The notes beneath the pieces are model-generated. The model saw only the letters and a program-made list of their open reading frames with translations. It did not search any database and had not been told where the DNA came from. From the IMG/VR virus record IMGVR_UViG_3300038345_000076, positions 1 to 64,000 of that record: a DNA stretch of 64,000 nucleotides; one strand, 5' to 3'. The DNA is from a virus (taxonomy: Duplodnaviria > Caudoviricetes). The position numbers were made by a program, and so were the translations under genes. Below, piece after piece: positions 17,159-53,236 of the stretch (position 1 is the stretch's first letter; each line of letters opens with the position of its first letter).

Positions 17159-18550
17159 ATGGCAGACAGAACCCCTTTGCACGATGATCAAGCCGAGGTT
17201 TACGTTGTAGGATCTTTGCTGTGCTATGAGGAATGTTATTTTTCTGTTGCAGACAGGTTAAAACCGTATCTGTTTTCAAACGCCAAACTTGCGAGGTTGG
17301 TGGAAGTTATTATAGCCTTGTATAATGAAGGTTCTAATGCGAACATTGTCACAGTTACAGAATATCTTTATGCGCATCCAGATCCAAACAATCCAGAAGT
17401 ATGGGAAGTTGCAGAATACTCGTCTAATGCTATTTTATCTGCTTTTGAGGACAGTTTCAATGTAGTAGAATCGCTTTATATTCGCCGTCGTTATTTTTCT
17501 CTTGGGTCAAAGTTGATGGAGTTTGGTACGAATCCGACAACGACATTAGAGGAAGTACAAAGGGAGATAACTGGTGTATTGGAAGAAGGTGCCGAGAAAA
17601 AGAAACGAGTAAAATCCCTGCGTGATGCAAACAAGGAACTGAAGGAGCGTGTCGAGAAGAACTACAATGGCACATCTGACACGATGATACCTACAGGTTT
17701 TAAGGAGATAGATGAAAGGGGCGGTTTGCAGGTTGGCGACTTCGATGTTTTTGCTGCAGAATCATCAATGGGTAAGACCTCACTGCTTACCTGCATCATG
17801 GTCAATGCCGCAAGTGTCGGTATTCCCTGTATGCTGTACTCGATGGAAATGATGTCACCACAACTTGCGGCGAGAATCGTTTCCCCGAAAGCAAAAATCA
17901 GTTCAGGTATTATTCAGTACAAACGTCTTGATGACTGGCAAATGAATGAATTGTCACAGGCATTGAAACTGACAGATGGTTTGCCAATCTATTTTGACGA
18001 TGAATCTACCATATCAGCAGACAGTATCATCAGCAGTATCAGGCGTAACGTGAAACGTCTTGGTGTGAAACTTGTAGGAATAGACTATTTGCAGATCCTT
18101 GCTTCAACAGGGAACATTAAAAACCAAGAGCAGTTCCTTGGCTCAATAGCCAGGAAACTGAAAAACCTTGCCAAAGAGTTGCAGATATGTATTGTTGCTC
18201 TGTCACAACTTGCCCGTAATATCACAGAACCGAAGCCGACACTTGGACGTGTAAGGGCATCTGGGCAGATTGTAGAGGCTGCTGACGATGTTTTTATGGT
18301 ATGGAGGCCGTCTGTGTACGGGAAAGGTTATGACGATTACATTTCTGTTCCAACCGAAAACACAGCAGAACTTATAATTGGTAAAGGTAGAAATATCGGC
18401 ACATTTACCTGTATCGTTGGATTCGACATGTCAACGACCTATTTCTACAATTACGAAGGAGAAGTCAGGAAGGCTGGTGAGATACATATAGAGAGTAAAA
18501 AGAATAACAAACAAGAACAGGAACCAGAACAAGGTGAATTGCCGTTCTGA
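17159..18550 (+). CDS. dnaB: Replicative DNA helicase (DnaB family)
   Basis: AAESSMGKTS, YSMEM, IDYLQI, ALSQLAR, ASGQIVEAAD, KGRN. Confidence 0.93.
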   Translation: MADRTPLHDDQAEVYVVGSLLCYEECYFSVADRLKPYLFSNAKLARLVEVIIALYNEGSNANIVTVTEYLYAHPDPNNPEVWEVAEYSSNAILSAFEDSFNVVESLYIRRRYFSLGSKLMEFGTNPTTTLEEVQREITGVLEEGAEKKKRVKSLRDANKELKERVEKNYNGTSDTMIPTGFKEIDERGGLQVGDFDVFAAESSMGKTSLLTCIMVNAASVGIPCMLYSMEMMSPQLAARIVSPKAKISSGIIQYKRLDDWQMNELSQALKLTDGLPIYFDDESTISADSIISSIRRNVKRLGVKLVGIDYLQILASTGNIKNQEQFLGSIARKLKNLAKELQICIVALSQLARNITEPKPTLGRVRASGQIVEAADDVFMVWRPSVYGKGYDDYISVPTENTAELIIGKGRNIGTFTCIVGFDMSTTYFYNYEGEVRKAGEIHIESKKNNKQEQEPEQGELPF

Positions 18551-18554
18551 AGTC

Positions 18555-18572
18555 ACATTACAGGAATAAAGT
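18555..18572 (+). repeat. Recombination site A1
   Basis: agtcACATTA-CAGGAA-TAAAGT; inverted partner is A2. Confidence 0.8.
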
Positions 18573-18576
18573 AGCG

Positions 18577-19593
18577 ATGGAAGTCAACAGAGTATATAAT
18601 GAAGACTGCCTTACTGGATTGAAGAAACTTCCAGACAACTGCATTGACTGCTGCGTGACATCGCCACCATATTACGCCCTGCGTGACTATGGCATGGATG
18701 AGCAAATAGGACTGGAGGAAACACCACAAGCGTACATCGACAGACTGACGGACGTGTTCATGAATGTGTACCGAGTGCTGAAACCTACGGGCACCTGCTG
18801 GCTCAACATTGGCGACAGTTACAATGGCAACAAGAAAGGCAACACCGAGACCAACAAGAACAAGCGAGTAGCCGAGAGCAACCATTTCGAGAAAAAGCTA
18901 TGGGACGGCGCAAAGCAAAAGGACTTAATCGGTATTCCCTGGATGTTGGCTTTCACGCTGCGAGCAAAAGGCTGGTATCTGCGACAGGACATCATTTGGC
19001 ACAAGCCTAACGCAATGCCAGAAAGCGTTACTGACAGGCTGACAAAGAGCCATGAGTATATTTTCCTTATGAGCAAAAGCAGCAAGTATTACTTCGACCA
19101 TGAGGCAATACAAGAAGTCGCCACGGGGTATGATGGAAGAAAAGACACCATGATGCACGGCTCTCCTAAGTATAACATTATTCCTGTAATGCCGCATGGA
19201 AAGCGTCAAGATCTTACAAAGAACGAGCATCAGCGGTGGCGTTTCAAGAACCTACAAGAAGATGGTCAGCAGCCAAACACCATGCACCTTCGCCGTGCTG
19301 AAGGACTTCCTGATAAGCAATACCCTATCAGGAACAAACGAGACGTGTGGTCTGTGAATACCAAACCAGACCATAACGCCCATTTCGCTGTCTATCCTGA
19401 AGAATTGATAAGACCTTGCATCCTTGCAGGTTGTCCGAAAGACGGTATCGTTCTTGATCCGTTCATGGGTAGTGGTACGACGGCGAGAGTAGCACGGCAA
19501 TATGGCAGGAACTTTATCGGCTACGAATTGAATCCAGAATACATCAAAATTATAGAGCGTAAAATTGTCGTTGAACAGGATATGTTTATCTGA
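18577..19593 (+). CDS. Beta-class amino-MTase (SPPY; N4-cytosine-like), currently ON
   Basis: CVTSPPYY near the N-terminus, LDPFMGSGTT near the C-terminus. Confidence 0.92.
   Translation: MEVNRVYNEDCLTGLKKLPDNCIDCCVTSPPYYALRDYGMDEQIGLEETPQAYIDRLTDVFMNVYRVLKPTGTCWLNIGDSYNGNKKGNTETNKNKRVAESNHFEKKLWDGAKQKDLIGIPWMLAFTLRAKGWYLRQDIIWHKPNAMPESVTDRLTKSHEYIFLMSKSSKYYFDHEAIQEVATGYDGRKDTMMHGSPKYNIIPVMPHGKRQDLTKNEHQRWRFKNLQEDGQQPNTMHLRRAEGLPDKQYPIRNKRDVWSVNTKPDHNAHFAVYPEELIRPCILAGCPKDGIVLDPFMGSGTTARVARQYGRNFIGYELNPEYIKIIERKIVVEQDMFI
19175..19192 (-). repeat. Recombination site A2 (intragenic)
   Basis: ACATTA-TTCCTG-TAATGC; shares CATTACAGGAATAA (14 bp) inverted with A1. Confidence 0.8.
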
Positions 19594-19594
19594 C

Positions 19595-19612
19595 ACATTA
19601 TCTTTGTAATGT
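19595..19612 (-). repeat. Recombination site B1
   Basis: ACATTA-TCTTTG-TAATGT. Confidence 0.88.
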
Positions 19613-19844
19613 CGCCCCAATTCTTTTCTGCACTATCAGGATGCAGCACTTTGTGGGCGATTACGGCAGGTTGCTTGTTGATGTCTGGGTTCGCATCTTC
19701 TTCTGGATCGAACTCAGCCCAACCTACCAACTCGTAATCGAAATCTGGATAAATCTCCCGTAACCTGTTGAGAGCCAATGCCTGTGAGCCATATCCGGCA
19801 CAAATCTCAAATAGCCTAAGTTTATTATTTCTATTGTACTTCAT
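19599..19844 (-). CDS. Inverted N-terminal 82 codons of a cytosine-C5 DNA methyltransferase (motifs I-III)
   Basis: LRLFEICAGYGSQ (motif I), ELVGWAEFD (II), NWGDITKI (III); antisense to the operon. Confidence 0.9.
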
Positions 19845-19849
19845 AAGTC

Positions 19850-19867
19850 ACATTACAAAGATAAAGT
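19850..19867 (+). repeat. Recombination site B2
   Basis: agtcACATTA-CAAAGA-TAAAGT; 15-bp perfect inverted repeat (ACATTACAAAGATAA) with B1. Confidence 0.88.
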
Positions 19868-20415
19868 GGCAGGATTTACCCGACTTTGACCTTCTGAGTT
19901 ATTCCACGCCTTGCCAGAGTATCAGCCAGGCAGGGTTGCAACATGGCTTTACTGAAGGCAGCGGTACGAGGTCGAGCATCATCTGGAATGTGCGAGACTG
20001 CGTAAAGGCTAAAAGACCAAAGTTTCTGATGTTAGAGAACGTGAAGGCAATGGTCAGCAGCAAGTATGTCGGATTGTTCAATGTCTGGCAGCGAGAATTG
20101 GAGAAGTTAGGATATGCCAATTTCGGTCAAGTGCTAAATGCTAAAGATTTTGGTGTTCCTCAGAATAGAGAGCGCATTTTTCTTATTAGCATAAGGATAG
20201 ACGATACAGAGCCGAAGTATTTCTTTCCAGAGCCGAGACCTCTGGAGGTGTGCCTCGCAGATGTCCTTGAAGAAGAGGTTGACGAGAAGTATTTCCTCAG
20301 TGACGAAATGCTTGCAAGGTTCTGTGAGAAGAGTCTGGAAGAAGAGAATGAAACTGTACCAGAATCGCAGGAAGATGGCGAAACCGACTTTGAAGACTTC
20401 TTTGTTGCTCAGTGA
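19852..20415 (+). CDS. Cytosine-C5 MTase catalytic part (motifs IV-VIII); lacks its start in this orientation
   Basis: YSTPCQSIS (IV), LMLENV (VI), GVPQNRERIF (VIII). Confidence 0.9.
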   Translation: MTKIKWQDLPDFDLLSYSTPCQSISQAGLQHGFTEGSGTRSSIIWNVRDCVKAKRPKFLMLENVKAMVSSKYVGLFNVWQRELEKLGYANFGQVLNAKDFGVPQNRERIFLISIRIDDTEPKYFFPEPRPLEVCLADVLEEEVDEKYFLSDEMLARFCEKSLEEENETVPESQEDGETDFEDFFVAQ

Positions 20416-20544
20416 CGATGTGATTGTGGCAGGACGTATCAGTTCGTCTCAAGACGGGATAGTTGTTATGGGGGGGGTATTTCCCCATGCCATACAGCAG
20501 GACACGGAAACTGCCCGAAAATTGTGGTCATTATCGAGAATTAA
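20348..20544 (+). CDS. TRD mini-gene M1 (frameshifted at G8; start uncertain)
   Basis: ...DDVIVAGRISSSQDGIVVM-(G tract)-GISPCHTAGHGNCPKIVVIIEN*. Confidence 0.6.
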
Positions 20545-20677
20545 GCCGCAGAATGTTTGTCAAGGTGGAGTTGCCTGTACTCTTAATACAAGATATGAAA
20601 ATGCGGCGATCAAAGACTATATCAGTTTGAGACACTATCCCCAAACTTGCGTGATGTATGTTTTTGAAACATTGTAA
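20522..20677 (+). CDS. TRD mini-gene M2
   Basis: ...RIKPQNVCQGGVACTLNTRYE...CVMYVFETL*. Confidence 0.6.
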   Translation: MWSLSRIKPQNVCQGGVACTLNTRYENAAIKDYISLRHYPQTCVMYVFETL

Positions 20678-20833
20678 ATTACCCCCCCCAATCGTCTTAT
20701 TGGACTTCCAACCACAGCAGATGGGATAGCACCGACGATTACAGCAGTCTATGAGACTACGGGGCCTGCAAATATGATAAGTGTAGCCCATTATCCGAAA
20801 ATGGGTATCGGAGTAATCTATGAAACAGAGTAA
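20664..20833 (+). CDS. TRD mini-gene M3 (frameshifted at C8)
   Basis: TTG-KHCKL-(C tract)-NRLIGLPTTADGIAPTITAVYE...GIGVIYETE*. Confidence 0.6.
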
Positions 20834-21011
20834 ACTAACTGGTGGCAAGCGATTCCAGAAATGGATTGAGAAAGGCGACCTTCCAAATGGGGGGGGGTAT
20901 TTTATCGACATTTACAATCAGATGTATAACAAGCAGGGAATCGCAGGTACTATACATACAAGAATCAACGATGGAAACTATTGGTGGGTCACACAGGTTG
21001 TTGAGACGTAA
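20820..21011 (+). CDS. TRD mini-gene M4 (G9, in frame)
   Basis: ...KQGIAGTIHTRI...WVTQVVET*. Confidence 0.65.
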   Translation: MKQSKLTGGKRFQKWIEKGDLPNGGGYFIDIYNQMYNKQGIAGTIHTRINDGNYWWVTQVVET

Positions 21012-21165
21012 TTTTGCCCCCCCCAGAATTTTACCATTGAATCCGATGCCAGACGGCACTTGCAGGACATTGAAAGCAGTTTACTATAAAACAGGCAGAA
21101 TCAATTTCCAATATCACAATGATTGGGGAACTACTGGAGTAGCAGTTGTGTATGAGACAGATTAG
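21001..21165 (+). CDS. TRD mini-gene M5 (C8, in frame)
   Basis: ...LNPMPDGTCRTLKAVYYK...GVAVVYETD*. Confidence 0.65.
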   Translation: MRRNFAPPRILPLNPMPDGTCRTLKAVYYKTGRINFQYHNDWGTTGVAVVYETD

Positions 21166-21307
21166 GAATATCTATTACGGGTGGTCGAGAAATGCCAAAG
21201 GTGAGATTGACAACTGGTACAAATGCGATATATCAAACTCTATCACAACTTTTGTCGGTGGTGGATGGAACACTTCACCCAAAGTAGCTGTAGTCTATGA
21301 AACGTAG
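21152..21307 (+). CDS. TRD mini-gene M6
   Basis: MRQIRNIYYGWSR...DISNSITTFVGGGWNTSPKVAVVYET*. Confidence 0.65.
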   Translation: MRQIRNIYYGWSRNAKGEIDNWYKCDISNSITTFVGGGWNTSPKVAVVYET

Positions 21308-21461
21308 GGACAAGGTGATACAGTGTGGCTATTTGTTCTTTACAGATAGCAATTCACAGGCATGGAGGGTATATGACAAGTACGGGATTTCACCAACACT
21401 TGATTGCTGTAGCGGTGGAAACAGACAGCCAAAGATCTTGGTTGCTTATGAGACGGAGTGA
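21297..21461 (+). CDS. TRD mini-gene M7
   Basis: MKRRDKVIQCG...RVYDKYGISPTLDCCSGGNRQPKILVAYETE*. Confidence 0.75.
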   Translation: MKRRDKVIQCGYLFFTDSNSQAWRVYDKYGISPTLDCCSGGNRQPKILVAYETE

Positions 21462-21603
21462 TAAGATTATTATTGTTGGAAATGTGTGGAATAGTAGGCA
21501 AAACGGCAGCGTATTGGACGTAAGAGGCATTTCGCACTGCATTACCATTGGTCAGCATTCAGGTACAGAACCTAAGATTAGAGTAGTCTATGAAAACGAT
21601 TAA
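21448..21603 (+). CDS. TRD mini-gene M8
   Basis: MRRSDKIIIVGN...VLDVRGISHCITIGQHSGTEPKIRVVYEND*. Confidence 0.7.
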   Translation: MRRSDKIIIVGNVWNSRQNGSVLDVRGISHCITIGQHSGTEPKIRVVYEND

Positions 21604-21754
21604 GGCTATTGGTTGTGCAATCCGAGGCCGTTCAAAAGGAGAATGGCATAATAGTGAACACAGGCAGATGCTTGAAATGAACTCAGACCGCTTCAGCAAT
21701 GCAGTCAGTACAGTTCAAAAGGATTTTATGGTAGCTATGCTTTATGAAACATGA
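21590..21754 (+). CDS. TRD mini-gene M9
   Basis: MKTIKAIGCAIRGR...QMLEMNSDRFSNAVSTVQKDFMVAMLYET*. Confidence 0.7.
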   Translation: MKTIKAIGCAIRGRSKGEWHNSEHRQMLEMNSDRFSNAVSTVQKDFMVAMLYET

Positions 21755-21890
21755 TTATATTGTTTTAGCTCTTGGAAATTGGAGCGATTGGCAGGATGAT
21801 AGAGTATTTGACACCGAAGGTATCAGCATTACCTTAGACACTAACTGTAGTAAGAGACCATTACTAAGGATTATAAATGAAACTGATTGA
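21744..21890 (+). CDS. TRD mini-gene M10
   Basis: MKHDYIVLALGNW...DRVFDTEGISITLDTNCSKRPLLRIINETD*. Confidence 0.7.
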   Translation: MKHDYIVLALGNWSDWQDDRVFDTEGISITLDTNCSKRPLLRIINETD

Positions 21891-22071
21891 TGTGCGACGT
21901 ATATCTCGTACAAGAACGGCAGAAGAGAGATTGAGGCGGCATTTGTACGGAGAGACGGGTGCAACCTTTTCAAAGGGCAAGTACATGACTTTGGGCGGTC
22001 ATGTGATGGGTACAATAACTACATTCATCAATAAGGATAATCTTGTTGCGGAAATTTATGATACTATCTGA
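21877..22071 (+). CDS. TRD mini-gene M11
   Basis: ...RTRTAEER...VMGTITTFINKDNLVAEIYDTI*. Confidence 0.65.
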   Translation: MKLIDVRRISRTRTAEERLRRHLYGETGATFSKGKYMTLGGHVMGTITTFINKDNLVAEIYDTI

Positions 22072-22201
22072 TGCTAAGAACGGAGCAAAACGGATGCGTG
22101 ATCACAAGATGGTATTTGAATGTGGTAATGAAAGTTTTTGCAATGCGCTGACACAAAATATAGATCATAGTTTAATAGTTTTACTATATGAAACAGAATA
22201 G
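22058..22201 (+). CDS. TRD mini-gene M12
   Basis: MILSDAKNG...SFCNALTQNIDHSLIVLLYETE*. Confidence 0.6.
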   Translation: MILSDAKNGAKRMRDHKMVFECGNESFCNALTQNIDHSLIVLLYETE

Positions 22202-22730
22202 AGTTTTTCACAGACAAGTTCGTGTTGTTTACAGGGCTTGCAGAAGACTTTACGGGAAAGAACGGACGCAGGATGAATGCCTAAAGTTATTTAAGATAAT
22301 CTTTCCTGAGTATTACAAAGCCAAAAATTCTAATGAGAAATACAAACAACTATCGGATGAATCTTATAATAAGTTGAATGCTTTGCTTTCAACGTGGATT
22401 CCAGAAGATGGTGCTTTGCATGATGTGATATGCTATACTCTCAATGAAGCAGATAGATGTATGTTACGTGAAGAGTTCTTGCAATTCTGTGAGGACATCA
22501 TGCCAGTTGTGATGCGTATAAGGAAACTTACACCGAGGGAGTGCTTTCGCTTGATGGGCGTTTCAGAGCCAGACATTGACAAGATGCTGAACAGCGGGAT
22601 ATCGAACAGTGCTTGCTATCGGCTTGCAGGCAATTCAATAGTAGTCGATGTAATGGTAGCTTTGTTTGATAAATTATTAGTCAATACGGAGGAAGAAAGA
22701 AAATTTGGAACTCAATTAACCCTTTTTTGA
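22188..22730 (+). CDS. Cytosine-C5 MTase C-terminal subunit (motifs IX-X)
   Basis: RIRKLTPRECFRLMG (IX), YRLAGNSIVVDV (X). Confidence 0.88.
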   Translation: MKQNRVFHRQVRVVYRACRRLYGKERTQDECLKLFKIIFPEYYKAKNSNEKYKQLSDESYNKLNALLSTWIPEDGALHDVICYTLNEADRCMLREEFLQFCEDIMPVVMRIRKLTPRECFRLMGVSEPDIDKMLNSGISNSACYRLAGNSIVVDVMVALFDKLLVNTEEERKFGTQLTLF

Positions 22731-22731
22731 T

Positions 22732-23298
22732 ATGGAAGAAGAATGGAAAGCCGTAAAAGGTTACGAGGGTAAATATGAAGTATCTTCTACAGGACTTGTC
22801 CGCTCTATAGGGAATTATTATCCGATTCGTGGTGGTGGGCAACAGTTTAGGGATGGTAAGATATTAGCGCAGCGTATGATGTCTAATGGCTATGTTAGCG
22901 TATGCCTCAGTAGAAATCATAAAACGAAAACAAAATATGTTCATCGTTTAGTCGCAGAAGCATTTGTGGCGAATCCTTTTCAATATGGAGAGGTAAACCA
23001 TAAAGACGAGGATAAAACTAACAATAGTAAGGAGAATTTGGAATGGTGCAGTCATTTATATAATATAAACTACGGAAATTGTCGTGCGAAAATAAGTTCA
23101 TCAAGACGTAAAAGTCCACTAATAGGGGAAAAAGTATCTCAATACACATTAGACGGAAAATATATAAAGACATATAAATGTGCGCAAGATGCCGGAAGAG
23201 AAACTGGGTGTGACCCATCGGCAATAAGGAAATGCTGTAATAGAAAAAAGAAATTTAATACTGTTCATGGTTTTATTTGGAAAAATGCGGATATGTAG
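22732..23298 (+). CDS. NUMOD4-HNH-NUMOD1 homing endonuclease
   Basis: EEWKAVKGYEGKYEVS, VHRLVAEAF, VNHKDEDKTNN..NLEWC. Confidence 0.9.
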   Translation: MEEEWKAVKGYEGKYEVSSTGLVRSIGNYYPIRGGGQQFRDGKILAQRMMSNGYVSVCLSRNHKTKTKYVHRLVAEAFVANPFQYGEVNHKDEDKTNNSKENLEWCSHLYNINYGNCRAKISSSRRKSPLIGEKVSQYTLDGKYIKTYKCAQDAGRETGCDPSAIRKCCNRKKKFNTVHGFIWKNADM

Positions 23299-23356
23299 AA
23301 GAGAGATAACTATAAAATAATAAATGTGAGTTAAACTCATAAAAACTATACTAATT

Positions 23357-23713
23357 ATGAAGAATCTGTTATTTGATGATTTCCGGCAATGGCGTGTATG
23401 CCTTTGGTCTGGAGTATGTAAAGCCGCATGGGGGCTGTTGAGAATACTTACTTGTATCATCTTTGGTATTGTGAGTATAATAGCTTACTGCTTCAAGCAG
23501 ATAGGTGCTTTCTGTAAGCGGGAGTTTATCGCGTCACTTATCATCGGTGTTCTGTTTGTTTTGCTTGTGGCTGGTTGGCTGACTACTTTCATGTCAGAAC
23601 GTGCGCACCGTGTCAATGCGGAAATGCAGCGTGATCGACTGAGTTATGAACTTGATTCTGTCAAGCTGTTGTCGCCAGTAAAGAACCATTGGAGTAAAGA
23701 CGATGAAGACTAA
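23357..23713 (+). CDS. Membrane protein
   Basis: Two hydrophobic segments. Confidence 0.65.
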   Translation: MKNLLFDDFRQWRVCLWSGVCKAAWGLLRILTCIIFGIVSIIAYCFKQIGAFCKREFIASLIIGVLFVLLVAGWLTTFMSERAHRVNAEMQRDRLSYELDSVKLLSPVKNHWSKDDED

Positions 23714-23900
23714 GGACGGTCAATATTACTATGCGCCACATCGCAGGCAGTGGGGTGTCTGGCAGTATCACGATCATGGTAATGGCTATGGCAGTGGTAC
23801 TTTTGTCAAAGACCTGCCGACGAAAGAAGATGCGAGGAAAGAGGTTTACAGGCTTAATGGATGGTCGCTATAATATAGCGACATACTGAACAAAAGGAGT

Positions 23901-24215
23901 ATGAAACAGAAATATAAGAAACAGAACAGTCCGAGGCTTGCAAATGCGATTAGGCGAGCTTGTGGGTATGCCCACTGTCATAGTGGTTGGTGGTATGCAT
24001 TCCGTTCAGACGATTTGGGAAGGTTGATTTATGACTTTGCTTACAAGGCAGACAAGTATGATGTGTTGAACAGGCTTTGTCCTGGCGCACAGACAAGTAT
24101 CGTAACTTTTGCCAGAGGGGACATCAGGCATCGTAAACGGATTGACCTTGCTGAAATGTTGGCTATGATTGCTGTCGCTATTGTCGCAGTAATCTTGATG
24201 CTCAGTCCTGAATAG
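23901..24215 (+). CDS. Hypothetical protein with C-terminal TM segment
   Basis: 104-aa ORF. Confidence 0.55.
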   Translation: MKQKYKKQNSPRLANAIRRACGYAHCHSGWWYAFRSDDLGRLIYDFAYKADKYDVLNRLCPGAQTSIVTFARGDIRHRKRIDLAEMLAMIAVAIVAVILMLSPE

Positions 24216-24275
24216 GATGCGGAATCAGGTGATAGACTAATTATTGATAATCATATAAACAAAAGAGAGAAATCT

Positions 24276-24557
24276 ATGTCACATTTATCAAGACGTTACA
24301 CCGAACACTTCTATGTGGAAGGTGCAAAAGGGAAGTTGGAGAAGAAAGATGTGTTGCATCTTAATTCACCGAAGTATATCAGAATGCAGCAAGCGCAAGG
24401 AATTGTCGCACAGCCGTATGAAATGCCTAATGCGGTATTTCCCTGTCAGCATGAAGAGCGTGGCTTTGTCTCTGCGAAAGGTAAAAAGAGCAACCGCACT
24501 CATGCCCGTTACAAGCGCAGGAACAAGGCTCGTATCAGAGCGAGAAAAGCAAAGTAA
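24276..24557 (+). CDS. Basic hypothetical protein
   Basis: 93-aa ORF. Confidence 0.55.
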   Translation: MSHLSRRYTEHFYVEGAKGKLEKKDVLHLNSPKYIRMQQAQGIVAQPYEMPNAVFPCQHEERGFVSAKGKKSNRTHARYKRRNKARIRARKAK

Positions 24558-24583
24558 ACAACCAATTTAAACATTTAGGAATT

Positions 24584-25087
24584 ATGGCAAATTTAAGAAA
24601 TCGATCAGGCTTCTGGATGGAAGCAACGTTAATTTTTAACGAAACAAATGAAAAGGGTATTACAAAGGAAGTTCGTGAGCGTTATGCTGTGGAGGCTGCA
24701 TCGTTTATAGACGGTGAAAAGAAACTCCGCGACGAACACAACTATGCCAACCGCCCCATCAAGCGCGTTGACGGTATGATACGCCCGAAGTATGGTACTA
24801 TCTGTTTCAGCGACGATGCAACTGCCGAGTCGTTCTATAAGGTGAAAGTCGTGATCACTGAAGAGATTGAGGTGAAGACCCGCAAGGGGGGTGTTCGCAC
24901 CAAGACCAAGGCTGTGTCTCACTTCCATCTGGTACAGGCACCGAGTGTTGAGGCCGCACGTAAGGCAGTTGTAGATGTCGTTTACAAGGACAGCAATGCC
25001 GACTACGAGATTGCCGACGTGGTGAAGACCCGCATCCTCGACGTGCTGGAGAATGACAAGCACCTGAAAAAGAAGGACGAAGAGTAA
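24584..25087 (+). CDS. DUF4494-like protein
   Basis: ERYAVEAASF, FYKVKV, HLVQA, YEIADVVKTRILDV. Confidence 0.75.
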   Translation: MANLRNRSGFWMEATLIFNETNEKGITKEVRERYAVEAASFIDGEKKLRDEHNYANRPIKRVDGMIRPKYGTICFSDDATAESFYKVKVVITEEIEVKTRKGGVRTKTKAVSHFHLVQAPSVEAARKAVVDVVYKDSNADYEIADVVKTRILDVLENDKHLKKKDEE

Positions 25088-25165
25088 AGGACTGCAACAC
25101 GGTTGCAGCATACGTAACATTTAGCCCTGCCTCTTTTGTGGAGGTGGGGCTTTATTTTTCAGACT

Positions 25166-25660
25166 ATGAAGAAATATAAGAAATATGTTATTACGTTGTC
25201 TCAGGTGTTTCCTGTGACTCATTGCAGGTCGGGCGAAGAAACGGGGTTCAAGGATAAGTTCCTTGCTGCCATCGGTGAGGAAGTTGGTGACTGGCTTAAA
25301 CTCCATACCATCAGAGCCAACTACGATCTTTGGAAGAAACGTTTTGAAGAGATTGAGGCTGGCAGGGCTTGTCTCTGCATCCGGCAATGGAGTGGTAAGC
25401 CATATTGTTCCAAACAAGTAGAGATTGCGAGACTTACCCGTGAAGACGGCATAGGCTTGCAGGAACTACGAATCGTTAATGAAAAATATAAAGGACGGGG
25501 TATTATGCTTGGCTACGTTGATGGAGAGCAAAAAAATGACTTCTTTCATACCTTATCCCAAAACGATGGGCTTAGTTTCAATGATTGGCTTGAGTGGTTT
25601 AAAGGTTATAACTTTAACAAACCATTGGCCATAATTCAGTTTACGAATTTCCGCTATTGA
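25166..25660 (+). CDS. Conserved Bacteroidales phage protein
   Basis: KLHTIRANY..W, RQWSGKPY.SKQ, NDGLS..DWLEWF. Confidence 0.7.
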   Translation: MKKYKKYVITLSQVFPVTHCRSGEETGFKDKFLAAIGEEVGDWLKLHTIRANYDLWKKRFEEIEAGRACLCIRQWSGKPYCSKQVEIARLTREDGIGLQELRIVNEKYKGRGIMLGYVDGEQKNDFFHTLSQNDGLSFNDWLEWFKGYNFNKPLAIIQFTNFRY

Positions 25661-25799
25661 CGATGGTTTCTATTCAAAAAGACAAGAAGGGCTGTTGCTA
25701 TTTCATTTCTCATAAACGATGTGGAATAACTGAAGGTACATTCTTTACGCTGGATGAATTGGTAGAAATAAGAGATTTAATAAACGAGATTGTAAAGAA

Positions 25800-26195
25800 A
25801 TGAGTGGAGGATATTGGGACAATCAGCAGTGGCACATTAGCAACATTGCTGACGGTATTGAGCAGGAAGTCATAACGATTGGCAAGCCTATTCCGAAGAA
25901 TAGATGGAATCGCAATGAAAGGCAGGAATATGAGGAAACTCATAAACAGCCTATGAACTACGCTTATCCAGAATCGACTTTGCGCAGGATGGAGGAAGCC
26001 GTGTATGCTCTAAAACGTGCCGCCATATATGCACAGAGAGTTGACTATCTATTATGTGGTGACGATGGTGAGGAAAGTTTTGAAGAAAGACTTCAGAAGG
26101 AACTTGAGGAACTTGACTCTAAATCGAAGATGGGTGAGAATGGCGTAATGTACTACGTTATTGACAGGTCGAAAGACCCTTACGAAGACTATTAA
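25800..26195 (+). CDS. Hypothetical protein
   Basis: MSGGYWD...DYLLCGDDGEESF. Confidence 0.65.
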   Translation: MSGGYWDNQQWHISNIADGIEQEVITIGKPIPKNRWNRNERQEYEETHKQPMNYAYPESTLRRMEEAVYALKRAAIYAQRVDYLLCGDDGEESFEERLQKELEELDSKSKMGENGVMYYVIDRSKDPYEDY

Positions 26196-26206
26196 AACTT
26201 ACAATT

Positions 26207-26431
26207 ATGTTTGAAACAACTCTTTTCTATGCAGTAAACCGTAGCGGCCAAGGTTGTATCTTCATGGAAGAGCCGAGGCGTGACACCGTGTTTGAAAGAT
26301 GGGTTGGAGAGTATCATCCAAGCGTAACTCTTACCATTGACAGAATGACAGCGTTGGGATTCGTGTTGCCTAAACTTTCGTGGCCAGACGAGCCAGTTAA
26401 AATCAAACTTACGTTGAATTATGAAGCATAA
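26207..26431 (+). CDS. Hypothetical protein
   Basis: 74-aa ORF. Confidence 0.55.
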   Translation: MFETTLFYAVNRSGQGCIFMEEPRRDTVFERWVGEYHPSVTLTIDRMTALGFVLPKLSWPDEPVKIKLTLNYEA

Positions 26432-26876
26432 CTATCTTGTCTCTGTCTTTGTTGACGGACGAAATGTGGATTCGTATTTCTCAGAGAATCTTGATGACTT
26501 GGTGACGATAAAAGCCATGCACAAAGGCTGTGAGATTAGCATATTTGACCTGCGTAATAATGTCAAGATGACACAGGAGCAGGTTCTTGTTGAGATCAAG
26601 AAGAGTGGTGAGCGGTGGAAGAAGTCGATGGAGAAACCTGTTGAAACCTCGACTGGTACTGTGGTGAAAAAGAAGAAAAAGCGCGAGAAAGTGAATAAGT
26701 TCTGGGAGCGACCAGTGCGTTGTGTCGAGACGGGGCAGGTATTTTCCACCATTCGCAAATGCAGCAATTACTTCAAGATTTCATACAAGTCTATATGGAA
26801 CGCTATTAACAGTGGTAGAGCCAGACACGGGTTGCATTTTGAGAGCGTAAAAAAAGATAAGGATAAGACTGAATAA
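26421..26876 (+). CDS. Protein with C-terminal NUMOD1-like HTH
   Basis: PVRCVETGQVFSTIRKCS. Confidence 0.6.
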   Translation: MKHNYLVSVFVDGRNVDSYFSENLDDLVTIKAMHKGCEISIFDLRNNVKMTQEQVLVEIKKSGERWKKSMEKPVETSTGTVVKKKKKREKVNKFWERPVRCVETGQVFSTIRKCSNYFKISYKSIWNAINSGRARHGLHFESVKKDKDKTE

Positions 26877-26994
26877 AACAATAAAAAAATGAAAGACGAA
26901 AAGACAATGTACCCGTACTTTTCGGAGTGGATGCCGATTGGTGATGGTTGCTGTACTACAGCAGCATACGGGACGATAGAGAAAGGAGATTATT

Positions 26995-27702
26995 ATGGAT
27001 AAGCAGCATGTGATTCCTAATTCTTTGCGATGGTTTTCATTAGAGAATTATCATGGCGAAATTTGGAAGGAAGTTGTTGGCTACGAAAAATATTACGCAG
27101 TTAGTAATTATGGGCGAGTAAAATCTTTAAAACGTTTTGTTCCTGTAACCACGCTTGACGGTAAGACTTATTTACATCCATATAGAGAAAAAATAATGAA
27201 ATGTATAAAGGATAGATTAGGCTATCTTACTGTTGATCTTCGGTGTTTAGGAAAAAGAAAAACATTTAAGATACATCGTTTGGTGATGCTAAATCATGTT
27301 CCAAATCCGAATAATTACCCAACAATCAACCACATAGATGAAGATAAGACAAACAATATTGTCACTAACTTAGAATGGTGTACGGTTTCCCACAATATAA
27401 CTTGGGGTGAAGGTCATAAACGAAGGTGCAAAAGTTTTATAAACAATAATAGATCTAAAGTTGTATTTCAATATGACGAAAAACTAAATTTTATAAAAGA
27501 ATATCCTTCTGCAGCAGAAGCAGAACGACAAACAGGTATATCAGGCAGAACGATTCGTTGTGTCTGTGATTTGAGATTACTATATGCAGGTGGTTATATC
27601 TGGTTACATAATAAATCTGATTTAGAATTTTGGAAAAATAAAAAGAAAAATGCGAAAAGAAATGGAAGATACAAAAAAAACAGAGCAACTAAGTTTGTAT
27701 GA
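26995..27702 (+). CDS. NUMOD4-HNH homing endonuclease
   Basis: EIWKEVVGYEKYYAVSNYGRVKS, INHIDEDKTNN..NLEWC. Confidence 0.9.
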   Translation: MDKQHVIPNSLRWFSLENYHGEIWKEVVGYEKYYAVSNYGRVKSLKRFVPVTTLDGKTYLHPYREKIMKCIKDRLGYLTVDLRCLGKRKTFKIHRLVMLNHVPNPNNYPTINHIDEDKTNNIVTNLEWCTVSHNITWGEGHKRRCKSFINNNRSKVVFQYDEKLNFIKEYPSAAEAERQTGISGRTIRCVCDLRLLYAGGYIWLHNKSDLEFWKNKKKNAKRNGRYKKNRATKFV

Positions 27703-28117
27703 CTTACGGATTGGAGATTACATACAAGAATGGAGAGAAATACCAGGAGTTTTCTCTATGCCTATGTATGTAAGTTGTATTTTTGATGATGGTGACTTGT
27801 ATCTGAACTTTGACGGTAATGAAGCAGACCCGTGGGATGCCAACGTGAAAGATGTGTATGACATACCGATAGACTGGGGAATATTGCCGCATTTCGGGTT
27901 CTTTGAGGAAGACCACCACTTGTTTGAGTTGGAGCAAGGTGACTGGATGGTTATGGTTCATGTTTTGAAGATTTGCAATATTTTCCATGCTAACGTGATG
28001 CTGTCAAATAAGATGAACGGCAAGGCTGTTCTTCTTGGTTGTGTTTACTCTATCCGTGAACTCCAGCACAAATTCTACGACGAGACCAAAGAGCCGTTGA
28101 AGCTGACTTTTGAGTAG
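27662..28117 (+). CDS. Hypothetical protein
   Basis: DLRIGDY...PID..IL..FGF...ELQH. Confidence 0.6.
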   Translation: MEDTKKTEQLSLYDLRIGDYIQEWREIPGVFSMPMYVSCIFDDGDLYLNFDGNEADPWDANVKDVYDIPIDWGILPHFGFFEEDHHLFELEQGDWMVMVHVLKICNIFHANVMLSNKMNGKAVLLGCVYSIRELQHKFYDETKEPLKLTFE

Positions 28118-28157
28118 GCCATATTTTAATGGTTTTTAGTTATATATAAGTTGTTTG

Positions 28158-28197
28158 GCGCAGTTTGTAGGGGTGTCTCCCTGCGACTGCGCTTTTT
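28158..28197 (+). terminator. Intrinsic terminator
   Basis: GCGCAGT...ACTGCGC followed by TTTTT. Confidence 0.55.
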
Positions 28198-28209
28198 GAT
28201 TGAGAGACG

Positions 28210-28758
28210 ATGAATAAGAAACTACGTTTGATGGTTACGGCAAATTGCCCGAACCATTGTCCGCTGTGCTGCAACAAGCAGTTCAACTTTGACAATATCC
28301 TTGTTGTTGACAGATGGGACTATGACGAGATAATGATTACTGGAGGTGAGCCTCTGTTGTACCCCGAAAGAATTGAGAGACTTTGTAAGAGTATTCGAGA
28401 CGTGACGGAACAGATGGGTAAGACTCCAAAAATCTACATCTATACTGCAAGAGCGATATGGCATCATATCGAAAGAGCCATCAGATACTATGCTGACGGC
28501 ATCGTAGTTGCTCCACACAGCAAAGATGATATCGCTTTCTTCCGTGAGACTAATAACTGTCTGTTAAAGCATTATCGTTACGGGAACACTTTTGATTGCA
28601 GTTTGCGCCTTAAAGTCTTCCCCGAAGTGAAAGATGCTTTGCCAGAGAACTTGAAGTGTTGGAAAGTCTCTGAATCGGAATGGATAGAGAACTGTCCTTT
28701 GCCTGAAGGTGAGGATTTCCGTCGTGTTTCAAGATTATGGACTGAAGATAAATGGTAG
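28210..28758 (+). CDS. Short radical-SAM-like 4Fe-4S protein
   Basis: TANCPNHCPLCCN (CxxxCxxC) and ITGGEPL. Confidence 0.75.
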   Translation: MNKKLRLMVTANCPNHCPLCCNKQFNFDNILVVDRWDYDEIMITGGEPLLYPERIERLCKSIRDVTEQMGKTPKIYIYTARAIWHHIERAIRYYADGIVVAPHSKDDIAFFRETNNCLLKHYRYGNTFDCSLRLKVFPEVKDALPENLKCWKVSESEWIENCPLPEGEDFRRVSRLWTEDKW

Positions 28759-28761
28759 GCT

Positions 28762-29079
28762 ATGGGAAAGACGGTCTATATTTCATTACCGATTGCAGGG
28801 CTTGACTTGCAGGAGCAGATAGCCCATGCTGAGAACGTTGAGAAGACTTTGGAACACTTCTATGACAAAGTTCTGAATCCATTTGACAACGGTGTTCCTC
28901 TTGATGCACACCCAAGCCTGCACATGAGAGCCGATTTCAAGATGCTGTTGGAAGCAGACACGATATTCATGTGCGAGGGCTGGGAGGAAAGTTCCGGCTG
29001 TGTTGCCGAATGGACTGTGGCTAAGTGCTGTCACATGGATATTAAGTACGAGAGTGATACCGCAAAATACTTTAGGTAA
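28762..29079 (+). CDS. DUF4406 family protein
   Basis: VYISLPIAG, VLNP, GWEESSGCVAE. Confidence 0.75.
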   Translation: MGKTVYISLPIAGLDLQEQIAHAENVEKTLEHFYDKVLNPFDNGVPLDAHPSLHMRADFKMLLEADTIFMCEGWEESSGCVAEWTVAKCCHMDIKYESDTAKYFR

Positions 29080-29285
29080 TGGATGAAAGATTAAAAACTA
29101 TTGATAGTGTCATTGCTGAGAATAACAAAGTCAGCAATAAACTGAACAAAAAAGCGAGTGAGGCAAGGCAGAAGATGTCTAAGGCTGATCGCCAGAGGCG
29201 TTTTGACTTGCATAATGCCAACTACCATCTTGAAAGAGCAAAGTTCTTGATAACACAAACTCTGGCAAATGACTATGAAGTATAA
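29079..29285 (+). CDS. Hypothetical protein
   Basis: 68-aa ORF, translationally coupled. Confidence 0.55.
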   Translation: MDERLKTIDSVIAENNKVSNKLNKKASEARQKMSKADRQRRFDLHNANYHLERAKFLITQTLANDYEV

Positions 29286-29398
29286 GTGCAAGTATTGTGG
29301 TCGCATTGTACCTCAGAAGTGCGCTCACAACTGCAATACAGGATTTCGGAAACGACATCTGGAATGGGTTGAGATTGAAGATGAAGAAAAGTAATAGT

Positions 29399-29914
29399 AT
29401 GAAAGAGGTTTGGAAAGACGTTGAAGGTTACGAAGGTCTTTATCAAGTGAGTAACCTTGGACGGGTAAAAAGCCTACCCAAAATGATTGGAAGAGGTGTT
29501 CAGTATCATGTTGGCGAGCGCATAATTACGCCTCACAAAGCCCCTAATGGGTATCTGCGTTTACATCTTGACAAAAACGGTAAAAGAGCATTCTTTTCAG
29601 TTCATAGGCTTGTTGCGAAAGCCTTTGTAGCGAATCCTCACAACTATCCTCATGTAAACCATAAGAATGAGGTGAAGAATGACAATGTTGCTTCTAATCT
29701 TGAATGGTGTACCCCAAAATATAATTCCAATTACGGAACAAGAAAATCAAGAATATCTCAAAGTAAAATGGGGCATATCGTTTCAGAGGTAACAAAAGCT
29801 AAACTGAGAGAAGCAAACTTAGGCTCAAATAGTCCATCTTTTGGAAAGAAGAGAACCGATGAAACGAGAATGAAAATCAGTAAAGCATTGAAGCGTTTTT
29901 ATTCAGAAAAGTAG
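29399..29914 (+). CDS. NUMOD4-HNH-NUMOD3 homing endonuclease
   Basis: EVWKDVEGYEGLYQVSNLGRVKS, VNHKNEVKNDN, GKKRTDETRMKIS. Confidence 0.9.
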   Translation: MKEVWKDVEGYEGLYQVSNLGRVKSLPKMIGRGVQYHVGERIITPHKAPNGYLRLHLDKNGKRAFFSVHRLVAKAFVANPHNYPHVNHKNEVKNDNVASNLEWCTPKYNSNYGTRKSRISQSKMGHIVSEVTKAKLREANLGSNSPSFGKKRTDETRMKISKALKRFYSEK

Positions 29915-29916
29915 CC

Positions 29917-29934
29917 ACATTATCGCTATAATGA
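29917..29934. repeat. Orphan recombination site E1
   Basis: ccACATTA-TCGCTA-TAATGA. Confidence 0.65.
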
Positions 29935-29950
29935 AACAAACTGAATTATT

Positions 29951-30274
29951 ATGAACAAAGAAGAGTATTTGAAAGCAGAGAAAGCCATTAAGGAAGAGTT
30001 TGAAGGAAAAAGAAAGCAACTCGCAAGAGAGTTTGCCTCTTCAAACAATCCTGTAAAGATAGGTGATATTATTACAGACCACTACAAGACTATTCGTGTA
30101 GAGAAGTTGTTGTGGGGTCATAACTTTGGCACTCCATTCTCTTGTATGTTTTATCGCGGTACTCGATTGACTAAGAATGGTCAACCTGCGAAGCGTGAGG
30201 CTGAAGATAACAGAGTGGCACAAACGGATATTAGAGAGATTAACGGCAGACCTTACAAATACGAGTTGAAGTAA
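29951..30274 (+). CDS. Hypothetical protein flanked by sites E1 and D1
   Basis: 107-aa ORF. Confidence 0.65.
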   Translation: MNKEEYLKAEKAIKEEFEGKRKQLAREFASSNNPVKIGDIITDHYKTIRVEKLLWGHNFGTPFSCMFYRGTRLTKNGQPAKREAEDNRVAQTDIREINGRPYKYELK

Positions 30275-30291
30275 CATTATGGAGGTAATGT
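30274..30291. repeat. Orphan recombination site D1
   Basis: taACATTA-TGGAGG-TAATGTgact. Confidence 0.7.
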
Positions 30292-30302
30292 GACTGAATA
30301 CA

Positions 30303-30320
30303 ACATTATTCGTGTAATGT
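30303..30320 (-). repeat. Recombination site C1
   Basis: ACATTA-TTCGTG-TAATGTaact. Confidence 0.85.
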
Positions 30321-30325
30321 AACTT

Positions 30326-30994
30326 ATGAAACCAATTAGTGACGTTTATAATATAGATTGTCTGGAGTATATGAAAACACAGCCAGACAAGCGATTCGAT
30401 ATAGCCATTGTTGACCCGCCTTACGGACTGCCTGCAAAAAGTACACACGGGCAAGGTAAACTGAAGAACAGAAGCCTTAACAGGGGAAATATACACCAAT
30501 GGGATTTTAGACCACCAAAGGAATACTTTGAAGAGTTGTTCAGAGTATCGAAGAATCAGATAATTTGGGGTGGCAACTACTTTGAACTGCCTCCGTGTCG
30601 GTGTTTTGTCTGTTGGGATAAAGAACAAGTGTGGGAGAATTTCAGCCAATGCGAATTTGCTTGGACTTCATTCGACAAACCTGCAAAGATGATAAGGCTT
30701 GCTAATCGTGGTGGTGATGCAGACAAAGCAAAGTTCCATCCAACAGCAAAGAACGTGAAACTCTATGAGTATCTGCTGAAGACGTTTGCCAACAAAGGAG
30801 ATTTTATCTTTGACTCTCATTTGGGTAGTGGACCGTCAAGGATTGCAGCCTATAAGTTGGGATTCGATTTCGTTGGCTGTGAGATAGATGCAGATTATTA
30901 TCGTCTCGCTGATGAACGATTCAAGCGTGAATGTCTTGGAGAGTACACAATGAAAGACGGGAGAGTTGCAAAGCAGTTAGACCTTTTTGGATAA
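30326..30994 (+). CDS. Beta-class adenine-N6-like DNA MTase, currently ON
   Basis: IAIVDPPYG, QIIWGGNYF, FHPTAK, DSHLGSG. Confidence 0.92.
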   Translation: MKPISDVYNIDCLEYMKTQPDKRFDIAIVDPPYGLPAKSTHGQGKLKNRSLNRGNIHQWDFRPPKEYFEELFRVSKNQIIWGGNYFELPPCRCFVCWDKEQVWENFSQCEFAWTSFDKPAKMIRLANRGGDADKAKFHPTAKNVKLYEYLLKTFANKGDFIFDSHLGSGPSRIAAYKLGFDFVGCEIDADYYRLADERFKRECLGEYTMKDGRVAKQLDLFG

Positions 30995-31011
30995 CATTAC
31001 ACGAATAATGA
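30994..31011 (+). repeat. Recombination site C2
   Basis: ACATTA-CACGAA-TAATGA; 17-bp inverted match to C1. Confidence 0.85.
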
Positions 31012-31020
31012 GAGCGAACG

Positions 31021-31539
31021 ATGAACAAAAATATTGAAATTTGGAAGCCCGTATTGGTCTTGTTTAGTAGAGATAGCAAATGGAATCTGACGGATAGATA
31101 TGTTTTTCCGAAAGGTTTGTATTATGTTTCAAACATGGGACGTTTTCGTGTTAGAAATAAAATAAAAGAAACAAAACCAGACAGTGTTATGACTATCACT
31201 TACTGCCTAAACGGTCATAGGTTTAAACTACACGAAATCATCCTTCAGACATTTATGCCAGAAGGAAATATAGATGGTTTTTCGCCAGACCACATAAACA
31301 AGAAAAAGCGACTTGATAACAGATTATGCAATCTTAGATGGGCAGACCATCGCACTCAATATGCTAACCGTGAAAACAAAAAGTATAAGTTTAAAAAAGT
31401 TTTTTGCAAAGAGAAAGGAATTGTCTATGATTCCTGTCAGCAGGCAGAAAAAAGTCTTGGGCTTACTTTTAACACCGTTTCTCGTGTCGCAAGGGGTGAC
31501 AGAAAATCTATTCATGGATTCACTTTCGTTTTTGTGTAA
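31021..31539 (+). CDS. HNH/NUMOD1 homing endonuclease-like protein
   Basis: EIWKP, YYVSNMGR, PDHINK..RLDNRLCNLRW. Confidence 0.8.
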   Translation: MNKNIEIWKPVLVLFSRDSKWNLTDRYVFPKGLYYVSNMGRFRVRNKIKETKPDSVMTITYCLNGHRFKLHEIILQTFMPEGNIDGFSPDHINKKKRLDNRLCNLRWADHRTQYANRENKKYKFKKVFCKEKGIVYDSCQQAEKSLGLTFNTVSRVARGDRKSIHGFTFVFV

Positions 31540-35551: not shown

Positions 35552-35590
35552 GCAGGGAGTGGCGATCGGGCTGCTCCCTGCGTTTTTTTT
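35552..35590 (+). terminator. Intrinsic terminator ending the rightward operon
   Basis: GCAGGGAGTGGC-loop-GCTGCTCCCTGC followed by T8. Confidence 0.75.
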
Positions 35591-36428
35591 AGTGGTTGAA
35601 GAAATCCCTTGCATCATCACCAATGTTGTTGATGTCAACACAGACGTAGTGCTTGCTCGTAGTCTGGGAATTTGTGTGTCCTGCGAGTTTGGCAATGATC
35701 TCAACGGGTACACCACGGACTGCAAGGGCTGTGACGTAAGAGCGACGGCTGCTGTGCATGGTAATCCATTGATATTTGGGCTTGGTCTGCATACGCCCGT
35801 TACAGAAGAGTGTTATTTCCTCCGTAAATCCGAGTTTCTTGCAGATGCGCTGGATGGTACGGTTGACTACGCTTCGGTCAACTTCTTTTGTCGGATTCAT
35901 CTTTAGGTACTTTACAAGTCGTGCGTGAAGCGGTTGCTCAACGGCTACTTTCGTTTTCTTGCTGACGTATGAAAGCGTTTCGCCATGTACGTTGTCTGTT
36001 GACATGGTTCGGCAGTCGCTTGAACGTGCGCCGGAGAAAGCACCACGCATGAAAAGAATCTTGACATTCATTTCTGTCTCGCTCTTCGGCTTGTATTCGT
36101 CGAATAGGATAAGTTCTTCTTCCGTCAGGCAGCAGTGCTGAGACGGAATGACCTTTACCTTCAGAGCCTTGGCATAACGCATGGTTGGCAGTTCAACTTC
36201 TTCGCATACGTTGTTAAGGAATGCCTTGATGATGGAGCAATAGACCTGTGCAGAGTTCTGTGCGAGACGTTGGAGCATCAATTCCCGTACTTTGTTGAGG
36301 TTGCTCAGTGTGAGGTCTTTCCACTGGACTTCCTTTACTCCGATGGCTTCACGCATGAATCGGAGAATCTGGATTCTGCCCGGATTGCTCCGTTCAAATT
36401 CCTGTTCAAATGATAAAACTTTGTTCAT
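35589..36428 (-). CDS. Tyrosine recombinase without arm-binding domain (invertase/Xer-like candidate)
   Basis: Likely start MNKVLSF (279 aa); SGARSSD (R), KKT (K), HSSRR, LAGH, KHY. Confidence 0.88.
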   Translation of the reverse strand: MNKVLSFEQEFERSNPGRIQILRFMREAIGVKEVQWKDLTLSNLNKVRELMLQRLAQNSAQVYCSIIKAFLNNVCEEVELPTMRYAKALKVKVIPSQHCCLTEEELILFDEYKPKSETEMNVKILFMRGAFSGARSSDCRTMSTDNVHGETLSYVSKKTKVAVEQPLHARLVKYLKMNPTKEVDRSVVNRTIQRICKKLGFTEEITLFCNGRMQTKPKYQWITMHSSRRSYVTALAVRGVPVEIIAKLAGHTNSQTTSKHYVCVDINNIGDDARDFFNH

Positions 36429-53218: not shown

Positions 53219-53236
53219 ACATTATAGTTATAATGT
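53219..53236. repeat. Orphan recombination site F1
   Basis: gttACATTA-TAGTTA-TAATGTgact; degenerate copy AAATTA-CGTTTA-TAATGTgact at 52760. Confidence 0.65.

Follow-up and report, generated by a model that had tools for sequence, protein, structure and literature searches.

Source genome and host

The window analysed here was the first 64 kb of a single 105,850-bp IMG/VR virus contig (IMGVR_UViG_3300038345_000076), for which CheckV gave a completeness of 100% and in which a terminal repeat was absent. The subject is a family of short, near-palindromic sites that occur as inverted pairs at the three DNA methylase loci of this phage genome. Close relatives were recovered from bovine rumen, goat rumen and deer-gut metagenomes, in part within genome bins of Bacteroidales or Bacteroidaceae; the host is therefore most likely a rumen or gut Bacteroidales bacterium. 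No close relative of the window phage was found among the GenBank phages searched. Related contigs from public virus and metagenome data are designated by L-numbers (L004, L010, L100 etc.), and coordinates are those of the window unless stated otherwise.

Methylase loci of the window

The whole genome was searched with the PF01555 and PF00145 profiles, and N6_N4 or C5 methylase loci were found at just the three positions that bear site pairs; a PF02086 search of the genome gave no match. The genes and gene pieces at these loci are as follows:

18577-19593, plus strand: methylase 1, N6_N4 family with an SPPY motif, 338 aa (PF01555, E=1e-55); intact, ON
19607-19855, minus strand: invertible segment B, 249 bp, with the C5 methylase start codon (19844) and motifs I-III; OFF
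19862-20415, plus strand: C5 methylase motifs IV-VIII (PF00145, E=5e-40); the frame ends in FFVAQ-stop at 20413
30326-30994, plus strand: methylase 3, N6_N4 family with a DPPY motif, 222 aa (PF01555); co-directional with the operon

A preliminary description of this DNA had assigned every DNA methyltransferase gene a switch of its own and had read the window states as N4-like ON, C5 OFF and N6-like ON. Both assignments were upheld: no further PF01555, PF00145 or PF02086 locus exists in the genome, methylase 1 is intact, the C5 start is flipped and methylase 3 is co-directional.

The site family

The pattern RCATTA-N6-TAAWG gave 14 strand matches in the 64-kb window, corresponding to nine distinct sites, eight of which lie at the three methylase loci. 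Dinucleotide shuffles of the window gave 0.14 expected matches (maximum 2), and the remaining 42 kb of the genome gave zero. The full site is a 28-bp near-palindrome with an 11-6-11 layout, AAGTCACATTA-N6-TAATGTGACTT (consensus from 10 sites), and scoring with this consensus added a tenth, weaker site at 52755. When 588 kb of unrelated phage loci were scanned, consensus scoring gave three weak matches and the strict pattern one. The scan agreed with the manual count in the preliminary description (nine sites, eight at or next to methyltransferase genes), and the motif is not equally frequent in shuffled or unrelated DNA. The sites are listed below, without strand:

18550-18577: site A1, AAGTCACATTA-CAGGAA-TAAAGTAGCGA, spacer at 18561; between the dnaB stop and the methylase 1 start
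19170-19197: site A2, spacer TTCCTG at 19181; inside methylase 1, where it encodes NIIPVM; inverted partner of A1
19590-19617: site B1, spacer TCTTTG at 19601
19845-19872: site B2, AAGTCACATTA-CAAAGA-TAAAGTGGCAG, spacer at 19856; the right half codes part of DITKIKWQ
29912-29939: site D, spacer TCGCTA; without a partner in the genome; in relatives, pairs across a radical-SAM-like gene
30269-30296: site E, spacer TGGAGG; without a partner in the genome; in relatives, an E pair (TGAAGG/CCTTCA)
30298-30325: site C1, spacer TTCGTG at 30309; ends 1 nt before the methylase 3 ATG
30989-31016: site C2, spacer CACGAA at 31000; overlaps the methylase 3 stop codon
52755-52782: site G, the weaker site, spacer CGTTTA; without a partner
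53214-53241: site F, spacer TAGTTA; the best palindrome, a singleton in an AT-rich divergent control region

The arms are common to all sites and were also found in relatives; the spacers are asymmetric and specific to each pair. Two inverted arms around a 6-bp spacer are the layout of core-type tyrosine-recombinase sites (spacers of 6-8 bp). In pairs A, B and C the partners are inverted and their spacers match, and the spacer coordinates previously assigned to these three pairs were all exact.

Partners for the orphan sites D, E, F and G were sought across the genome and none exist. Sites G and F, each followed by GACTTTTT, lie in an AT-rich 930-bp gap between divergent gene blocks (52630-53560), which may be a control or origin region. 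An F-like singleton (spacer TATTTA) was found 15-17 kb from homologues of the recombinase Rec1, described below, in two Bacteroidales genome bins, which matches the position of F in the window. A further F-like candidate in L116, ACCTTA-TATATA-TAATGT, is separated from Rec1 by 18 kb; it is weak and not significant alone, and was rejected.

Effect of inversion on the methylase genes

Pair A cuts methylase 1; with segment A (18567-19180) flipped, the first ~200 codons would face away from the S-adenosylmethionine (AdoMet)-binding end. Segment B was inverted in silico: the 79 minus-strand codons of motifs I-III then joined motifs IV-VIII in frame, giving one open frame. Pair C brackets the whole methylase 3 gene, and its inversion would set the gene against the operon. 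At each locus the inverted repeats flank a segment that decides the integrity or expression of a gene, with A and B splitting open reading frames (ORFs) and C reversing a gene.

Orientation of the segments in related genomes

The preliminary description had proposed a comparison with related phage genomes. This was carried out, and alternative orientations with breakpoints in the spacers were found for A, B and C, so that both orientations of each segment exist in nature, across related genomes.

For B, the search pattern covered just the fixed half of B2. The window orientation was found in one related virus contig (L004/L005) and the opposite orientation in five metagenome contigs (L006-L010) and in L017. 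In the five contigs the ATG directly follows the left site and the right site reads GGGCGACATTA-CAAAGA-TAAAGTGGCAG, a hybrid that is the exact prediction of a crossover inside the spacer. For A, L016 and L017 carry methylase 1 whole; in L028 and L038 it is flipped, with the first ~205 codons on one strand, the last ~135 on the other and the junctions at the sites. In L028 each half of methylase 1 is still an open frame. For C, the gene is co-directional in L012 and L106, as in the window, and is reversed relative to both flanks in L011, L013 and L100; an arm-by-arm comparison of L011 with L012 placed the break at the C pair and not at the E pair. For all three segments, genomes in the opposite state carry swapped inner and outer arms with the spacer unchanged.

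The orientation of a segment is not predicted by relatedness. The nearest relatives of the window, which has B off, are L010 (92.5% identical, fixed part) and L006 (87-96%), both on, and L004 (B off) is ~80% identical to the window, L010 and L006. Similarly, A is on in L016 and off in L038 at 95% identity between the two, and L028 (A off) belongs to another lineage. From this discordance of state and identity, A and B have each flipped at least two times.

The segments had been claimed to flip independently, and the mixed combinations of states give them the appearance of independence: A is on and B off in the window versus both on in L017, and L011 has C flipped and X (a further pair, see below) not flipped versus both flipped in L100. 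As a separate observation, methylase 1 of L017 (L017:1762-2449) has ~540 extra bases inside the invertible segment A relative to the window. In L106, two CACTGA-spacer sites in direct orientation, 54 bp apart, follow methylase 3 (L106:6664-6745), and either is a possible partner of the upstream TCAGTG site.

Selection on flipped pieces and covariation of spacers

The flipped C5 segment was compared between the two OFF genomes, the window and L004: 30 synonymous versus 3 non-synonymous changes were counted, giving a non-synonymous to synonymous ratio (pN/pS) of 0.03. The flipped piece is under strong purifying selection; a permanently disconnected piece would not be so conserved.

Spacers vary among genomes yet match within a pair, at 6/6 bases in 28 of the 30 pairs compared. 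The 13 alleles are as follows:

Pair A: CAGGAA, CTGGAA
Pair B: CAAAGA
Pair C: CACGAA, CACAAA, CACTGA
Pair D: TCGCTA, TTGCTA, TTGATA
Pair E: CCTTCA
Pair X: GGAAAA, GGAAGA, GAATGA

In A2 of L028 a synonymous proline change (CCT to CCA) is mirrored by a base change in the non-coding A1. The covariation suggests that spacer identity is needed for exchange, as had been supposed.

The same data bear on the proposal that the segments differ in orientation through assembly error or through rare past accidents at short inverted repeats, with the palindromes acting as operators or terminators. Each assembly does give one orientation, and the inverted repeats are short (14-17 bp). Repeats shorter than the assembly k-mers cannot alone cause mis-joins, and this proposal sits badly with at least two independent flips each for A and B, with breakpoints exactly at the spacers, with conserved arms and covarying spacers, and with the pN/pS of the flipped piece; it is hardly credible. 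A role of the palindromes as operators or terminators was rejected, as it leaves the exchanged arms unexplained.

Additional switches and module content in relatives

Three further pairs were found in relatives. The D pair brackets a radical-SAM-like gene (L011-L013, L100, L106, L107); pair X brackets a PAPS-reductase-family gene and is reversed in L100; and the C pair is nested within an outer E pair whose right site lies in codons ~6-14 of a fourth N6_N4 methylase gene (methylase 4). The unpaired sites D and E of the window are remnants. The rule is broader than methylases and covers DNA-modification genes in general, because the further switches of relatives include PAPS-reductase-like and radical-SAM-like genes.

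Methylase 4 and the PAPS-reductase-like and radical-SAM-like genes are absent from the window, which has HNH/NUMOD endonuclease genes instead. Four such homing-endonuclease-like genes lie in the modification region (22732-23298, 26995-27702, 29297-29914 and 31021-31539), and two of the four occupy the places of the relatives' radical-SAM-like gene and methylase 4.

This variation in content speaks for a reading of the sites as borders of mobile modules (pdif- or integron-cassette-like) that move modification genes between phages, the inversions being occasional unselected by-products. Pairs C, X and D do bracket whole genes, L004, L008 and L009 lack methylase 1 and have B1 immediately after the dnaB stop, three genes present in relatives are replaced in the window, and sites D, E, F and G of the window are without partners. 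A cassette border would not cut genes, however, as A, B and E' do from within coding sequence. The two sites of a pair are in every case inverted and have matching spacers, which favours inversion over excision; the methylase 1 junctions (A1 CAGGAA, B1 TCTTTG) are unlike simple site-specific insertion; and repeated recent flips with selection on the flipped pieces do not suit unselected by-products. As the primary explanation, mobile modules are unlikely, though deserving of attention. The two readings are compatible and not exclusive.

Candidate recombinases

A serine recombinase or invertase was sought in the genome and none is encoded; three tyrosine recombinases were found. These genes, and the neighbour of the first, are as follows:

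35589-36428, minus strand: Rec1, 279 aa, two-domain tyrosine recombinase (PF00589) without an arm-binding domain
36587-37786, minus strand: FtsK/SpoIIIE-family ATPase gene, immediately upstream of Rec1, an arrangement kept in every relative seen
7873-9045: Rec2, PF00589 with Arm-DNA-bind_5 and SAM_5; integrase-like build
90.3-91.5 kb of the genome, beyond the window: Rec3, 409 aa, Bacteroidales-type; PF00589 with Arm-DNA-bind_5 and SAM_5

The catalytic residues of Rec1 (R135-K158-H225-R228-H251-Y261, the R-K-H-R-H/W-Y set) are invariant in 30 homologues. Its structural model had a predicted local distance difference test (pLDDT) score of 91.5, and the nearest folds were XerA, the lambda Int core (75-356), XerH and Cre. 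In 5/5 site-bearing contigs of sufficient reach (window, L097, L100, L114, L115) the module cluster has a Rec1 homologue next to it, and no homologue was found at E<=1e-10 in three genome bins with related methylases and without the sites. Rec1 used as single query against IMG/VR gave no match; the homologues came from a protein search. Rec1 is the best candidate for the enzyme acting on the sites, and we lean towards it with modest confidence. Its earlier role may have been resolution at site F, which may be the original site of the system, serving for example to resolve genome multimers. An FtsK gamma domain was not detected by Pfam in the window copy of the ATPase, and its C-terminus differs on inspection from that of the L097 homologue; therefore no Xer-FtsK coupling is claimed.

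That Rec2 or Rec3, the arm-binding-domain Bacteroidales-type recombinases, act on the sites in place of Rec1 is unlikely, without being far-fetched. Both carry PF00589 with Arm-DNA-bind_5 and SAM_5, and the L004 contig, which bears the B switch, retains a Rec2 homologue; Rec2 is nevertheless built like an integrase, the sites lack arm-type accessory repeats, and Rec3 adjoins a different site family at 86.9-89.9 kb. The latter consists of ten CTGGGCG heptamers (5 plus, 5 minus) in 2.9 kb (genome 86951-89850), and together with Rec3 it fits a separate shufflon.

A third possibility is that host XerC/D flips the segments, as in Acinetobacter pdif modules, where pXerC/D pairs with identical 6-bp centres give reversible inversions (PMC9947245). 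The sites share the 11-6-11 architecture of dif, and to this extent the label 'dif-like' given to them earlier holds; in sequence it does not. The dif inner core is ATAA-N6-TTAT, unlike the core seen here, ATTA-N6-TAAT. The perfect core ACATTA-N6-TAATGT occurred nine times in five Bacteroidales genome bins, eight times on phage-bearing contigs, and was absent from the three of these bins that lack the phage; no host dif of this kind was seen in these bins, which are incomplete. With the perfect core so nearly confined to phage contigs, resemblance to a host dif was not found. In addition, near-palindromic arms suggest a homodimer and not a XerC plus XerD pair, and an Xer/Cre-like recombinase is encoded 4.6 kb away. 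Host XerC/D is accordingly an improbable driver of the flips.

Proposed mechanism

The sites and segments are very probably programmed site-specific inversion switches. A tyrosine recombinase would bind the two inverted 11-bp arms of the 28-bp site and exchange strands across the 6-bp asymmetric spacer, and sites would recombine just with those of identical spacer. With a private spacer per pair each segment would therefore flip alone, and with inverted partners the product would be an inversion and not a deletion. A flip of A or B would split a methylase gene, and a flip of C would turn a whole methylase gene against the operon. In relatives, the outer E pair, enclosing C, would likewise cut methylase 4, and the PAPS-reductase-like and radical-SAM-like genes would answer to pairs of their own. 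Flipping is presumably frequent and reversible within a population, and the pay-off would be a phage population with mixed DNA-modification patterns, which may, as suggested earlier, hedge between restriction types.

Several observations weigh against this scheme. Just one further assembly represents this strain (Logan SRR1725612); it shows the window orientation, on a contig that is unbroken through A and B. Strict independence of A and C is not certain, because their spacers differ by just one base. The C5 frame stops at 20413 even when ON, the target-recognition part and motifs IX-X lying in separate downstream ORFs. Two of the 30 pairs look disabled, the C pair of L100 (TCAGTG opposite CACGAA) and the A pair of L038 (7-nt spacer in A1), so that some copies may be locked. 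With respect to the enzyme, such sites are lacking within 10 kb of the Rec1 homologues of a 69%-identical lineage, and a variant site family was sought around the Rec1 homologues of L102-L104 and not found; co-occurrence of Rec1 and the sites could be mere synteny, because all Rec1-bearing contigs are related phages; and Rec2 and Rec3 are encoded in the same genome.

The fullest form of the inversion-switch explanation is tentative, and we place it slightly short of an even chance. It holds that a phage Cre/Xer-like recombinase uses the spacer as an address code for at least six independent, partly nested switches across the family, which act on up to four methylases and on PAPS-reductase-like and radical-SAM-like genes. 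Virions would then carry many combinations of modifications, the sites would double as junctions for gain and loss of modules, and the family would possibly derive from the single resolution site F.

Short ORFs downstream of the C5 gene

The region following C5 motifs IV-VIII contains:

20420-22730, plus strand: ~11 short ORFs resembling target-recognition domains, then an ORF (22188-22730) with C5 motifs IX-X

The short ORFs are 40-65 aa each and resemble C5 target-recognition domains, with the pattern G-I-S/A-P-T-L ... VVYET-stop. In most of them the ATG lies within the TATGAAAC ending of the preceding ORF, which gives a +1 frame; the exceptions are the M2-M3 boundary (same frame across the stop) and M5 (no ATG at the boundary). 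L004, L007 and L010 preserve this layout, stops included, with synonymous changes. Reassignment of a stop codon was considered for the C5-region stops and rejected, because all three stop codons occur.

Homopolymer runs (G8, C8, G9 and C8, at 20470-20477, 20682-20689, 20889-20897 and 21017-21024, respectively) lie inside or at the start of short ORFs, and L004 has runs of other lengths (C10 and AG8). In the window, the first run places its ORF out of frame. The runs fit slippage-type switching.

Comparison with known systems

Phage methylases are usually viewed as fixed anti-restriction armour. In the literature searched, no published description of phage methylase genes under individual inversion switches was found, in line with what the preliminary description had stated. 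A 2026 survey contained just 16 putative viral invertons, with methylases unmentioned.

Mu Gin, P1 Cin and the R64 Rci shufflon are similar in that the recombinase of a mobile element flips segments and diversifies a population. They act on tail-fibre or pilus genes, however, through serine invertases in the case of Gin and Cin and, in that of Rci, with a single spacer and arms that vary. Bacterial methylases undergo phase variation driven by inversion (hsdS invertons, PglX and Type IIG domain swaps; PMC7672463, PMC4948785, PMC9881135), and here too recombinase inversions at short inverted repeats alter the methylation made. Those systems belong to chromosomal defence and swap specificity modules at repeats in homologous coding sequence, whereas the phage switches turn orphan methylases on and off singly through a dedicated site family. 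If the switches operate as proposed, the phage population would hedge its epigenetic coat, and lysogens would vary in their own methylation.

The Cre/loxP and FLP/FRT systems likewise consist of one simple tyrosine recombinase and inverted arms around an asymmetric spacer. In heterospecific lox sets (lox511, lox2272; Brainbow-type designs) spacer identity picks the partners, so nested and independent switches are possible. Heterospecific lox and FRT sets are man-made and 13-8-13 in layout, whereas the phage set is 11-6-11, apparently natural and, judging from the covariation, maintained by selection. It would be the natural counterpart of this engineered logic, and would supply ready-to-use 28-bp sites that are mutually exclusive, possibly together with a new compact recombinase.

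Of the known systems, the pdif (pXerC/D) modules of Acinetobacter plasmids come closest; in these, reversible inversions between pairs with identical 6-bp centres were shown by polymerase chain reaction (PMC9947245). Both systems have 28-bp 11-6-11 sites, oppositely oriented sites that bracket genes or modules, and recombination between identical centres (PMC9947245, PMC13141974). They differ in that pdif sites are close copies of the host dif on which host XerC/D acts, active pairs mostly have one centre (GGTGTA) and the cargo is resistance genes, whereas the phage sites have another core, near-palindromic arms and a private centre per pair, some are intragenic, the cargo is DNA-modification genes and the enzyme is likely a phage recombinase. 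Module biology of the pdif type would thereby be extended from Acinetobacter plasmids to Bacteroidales phages.

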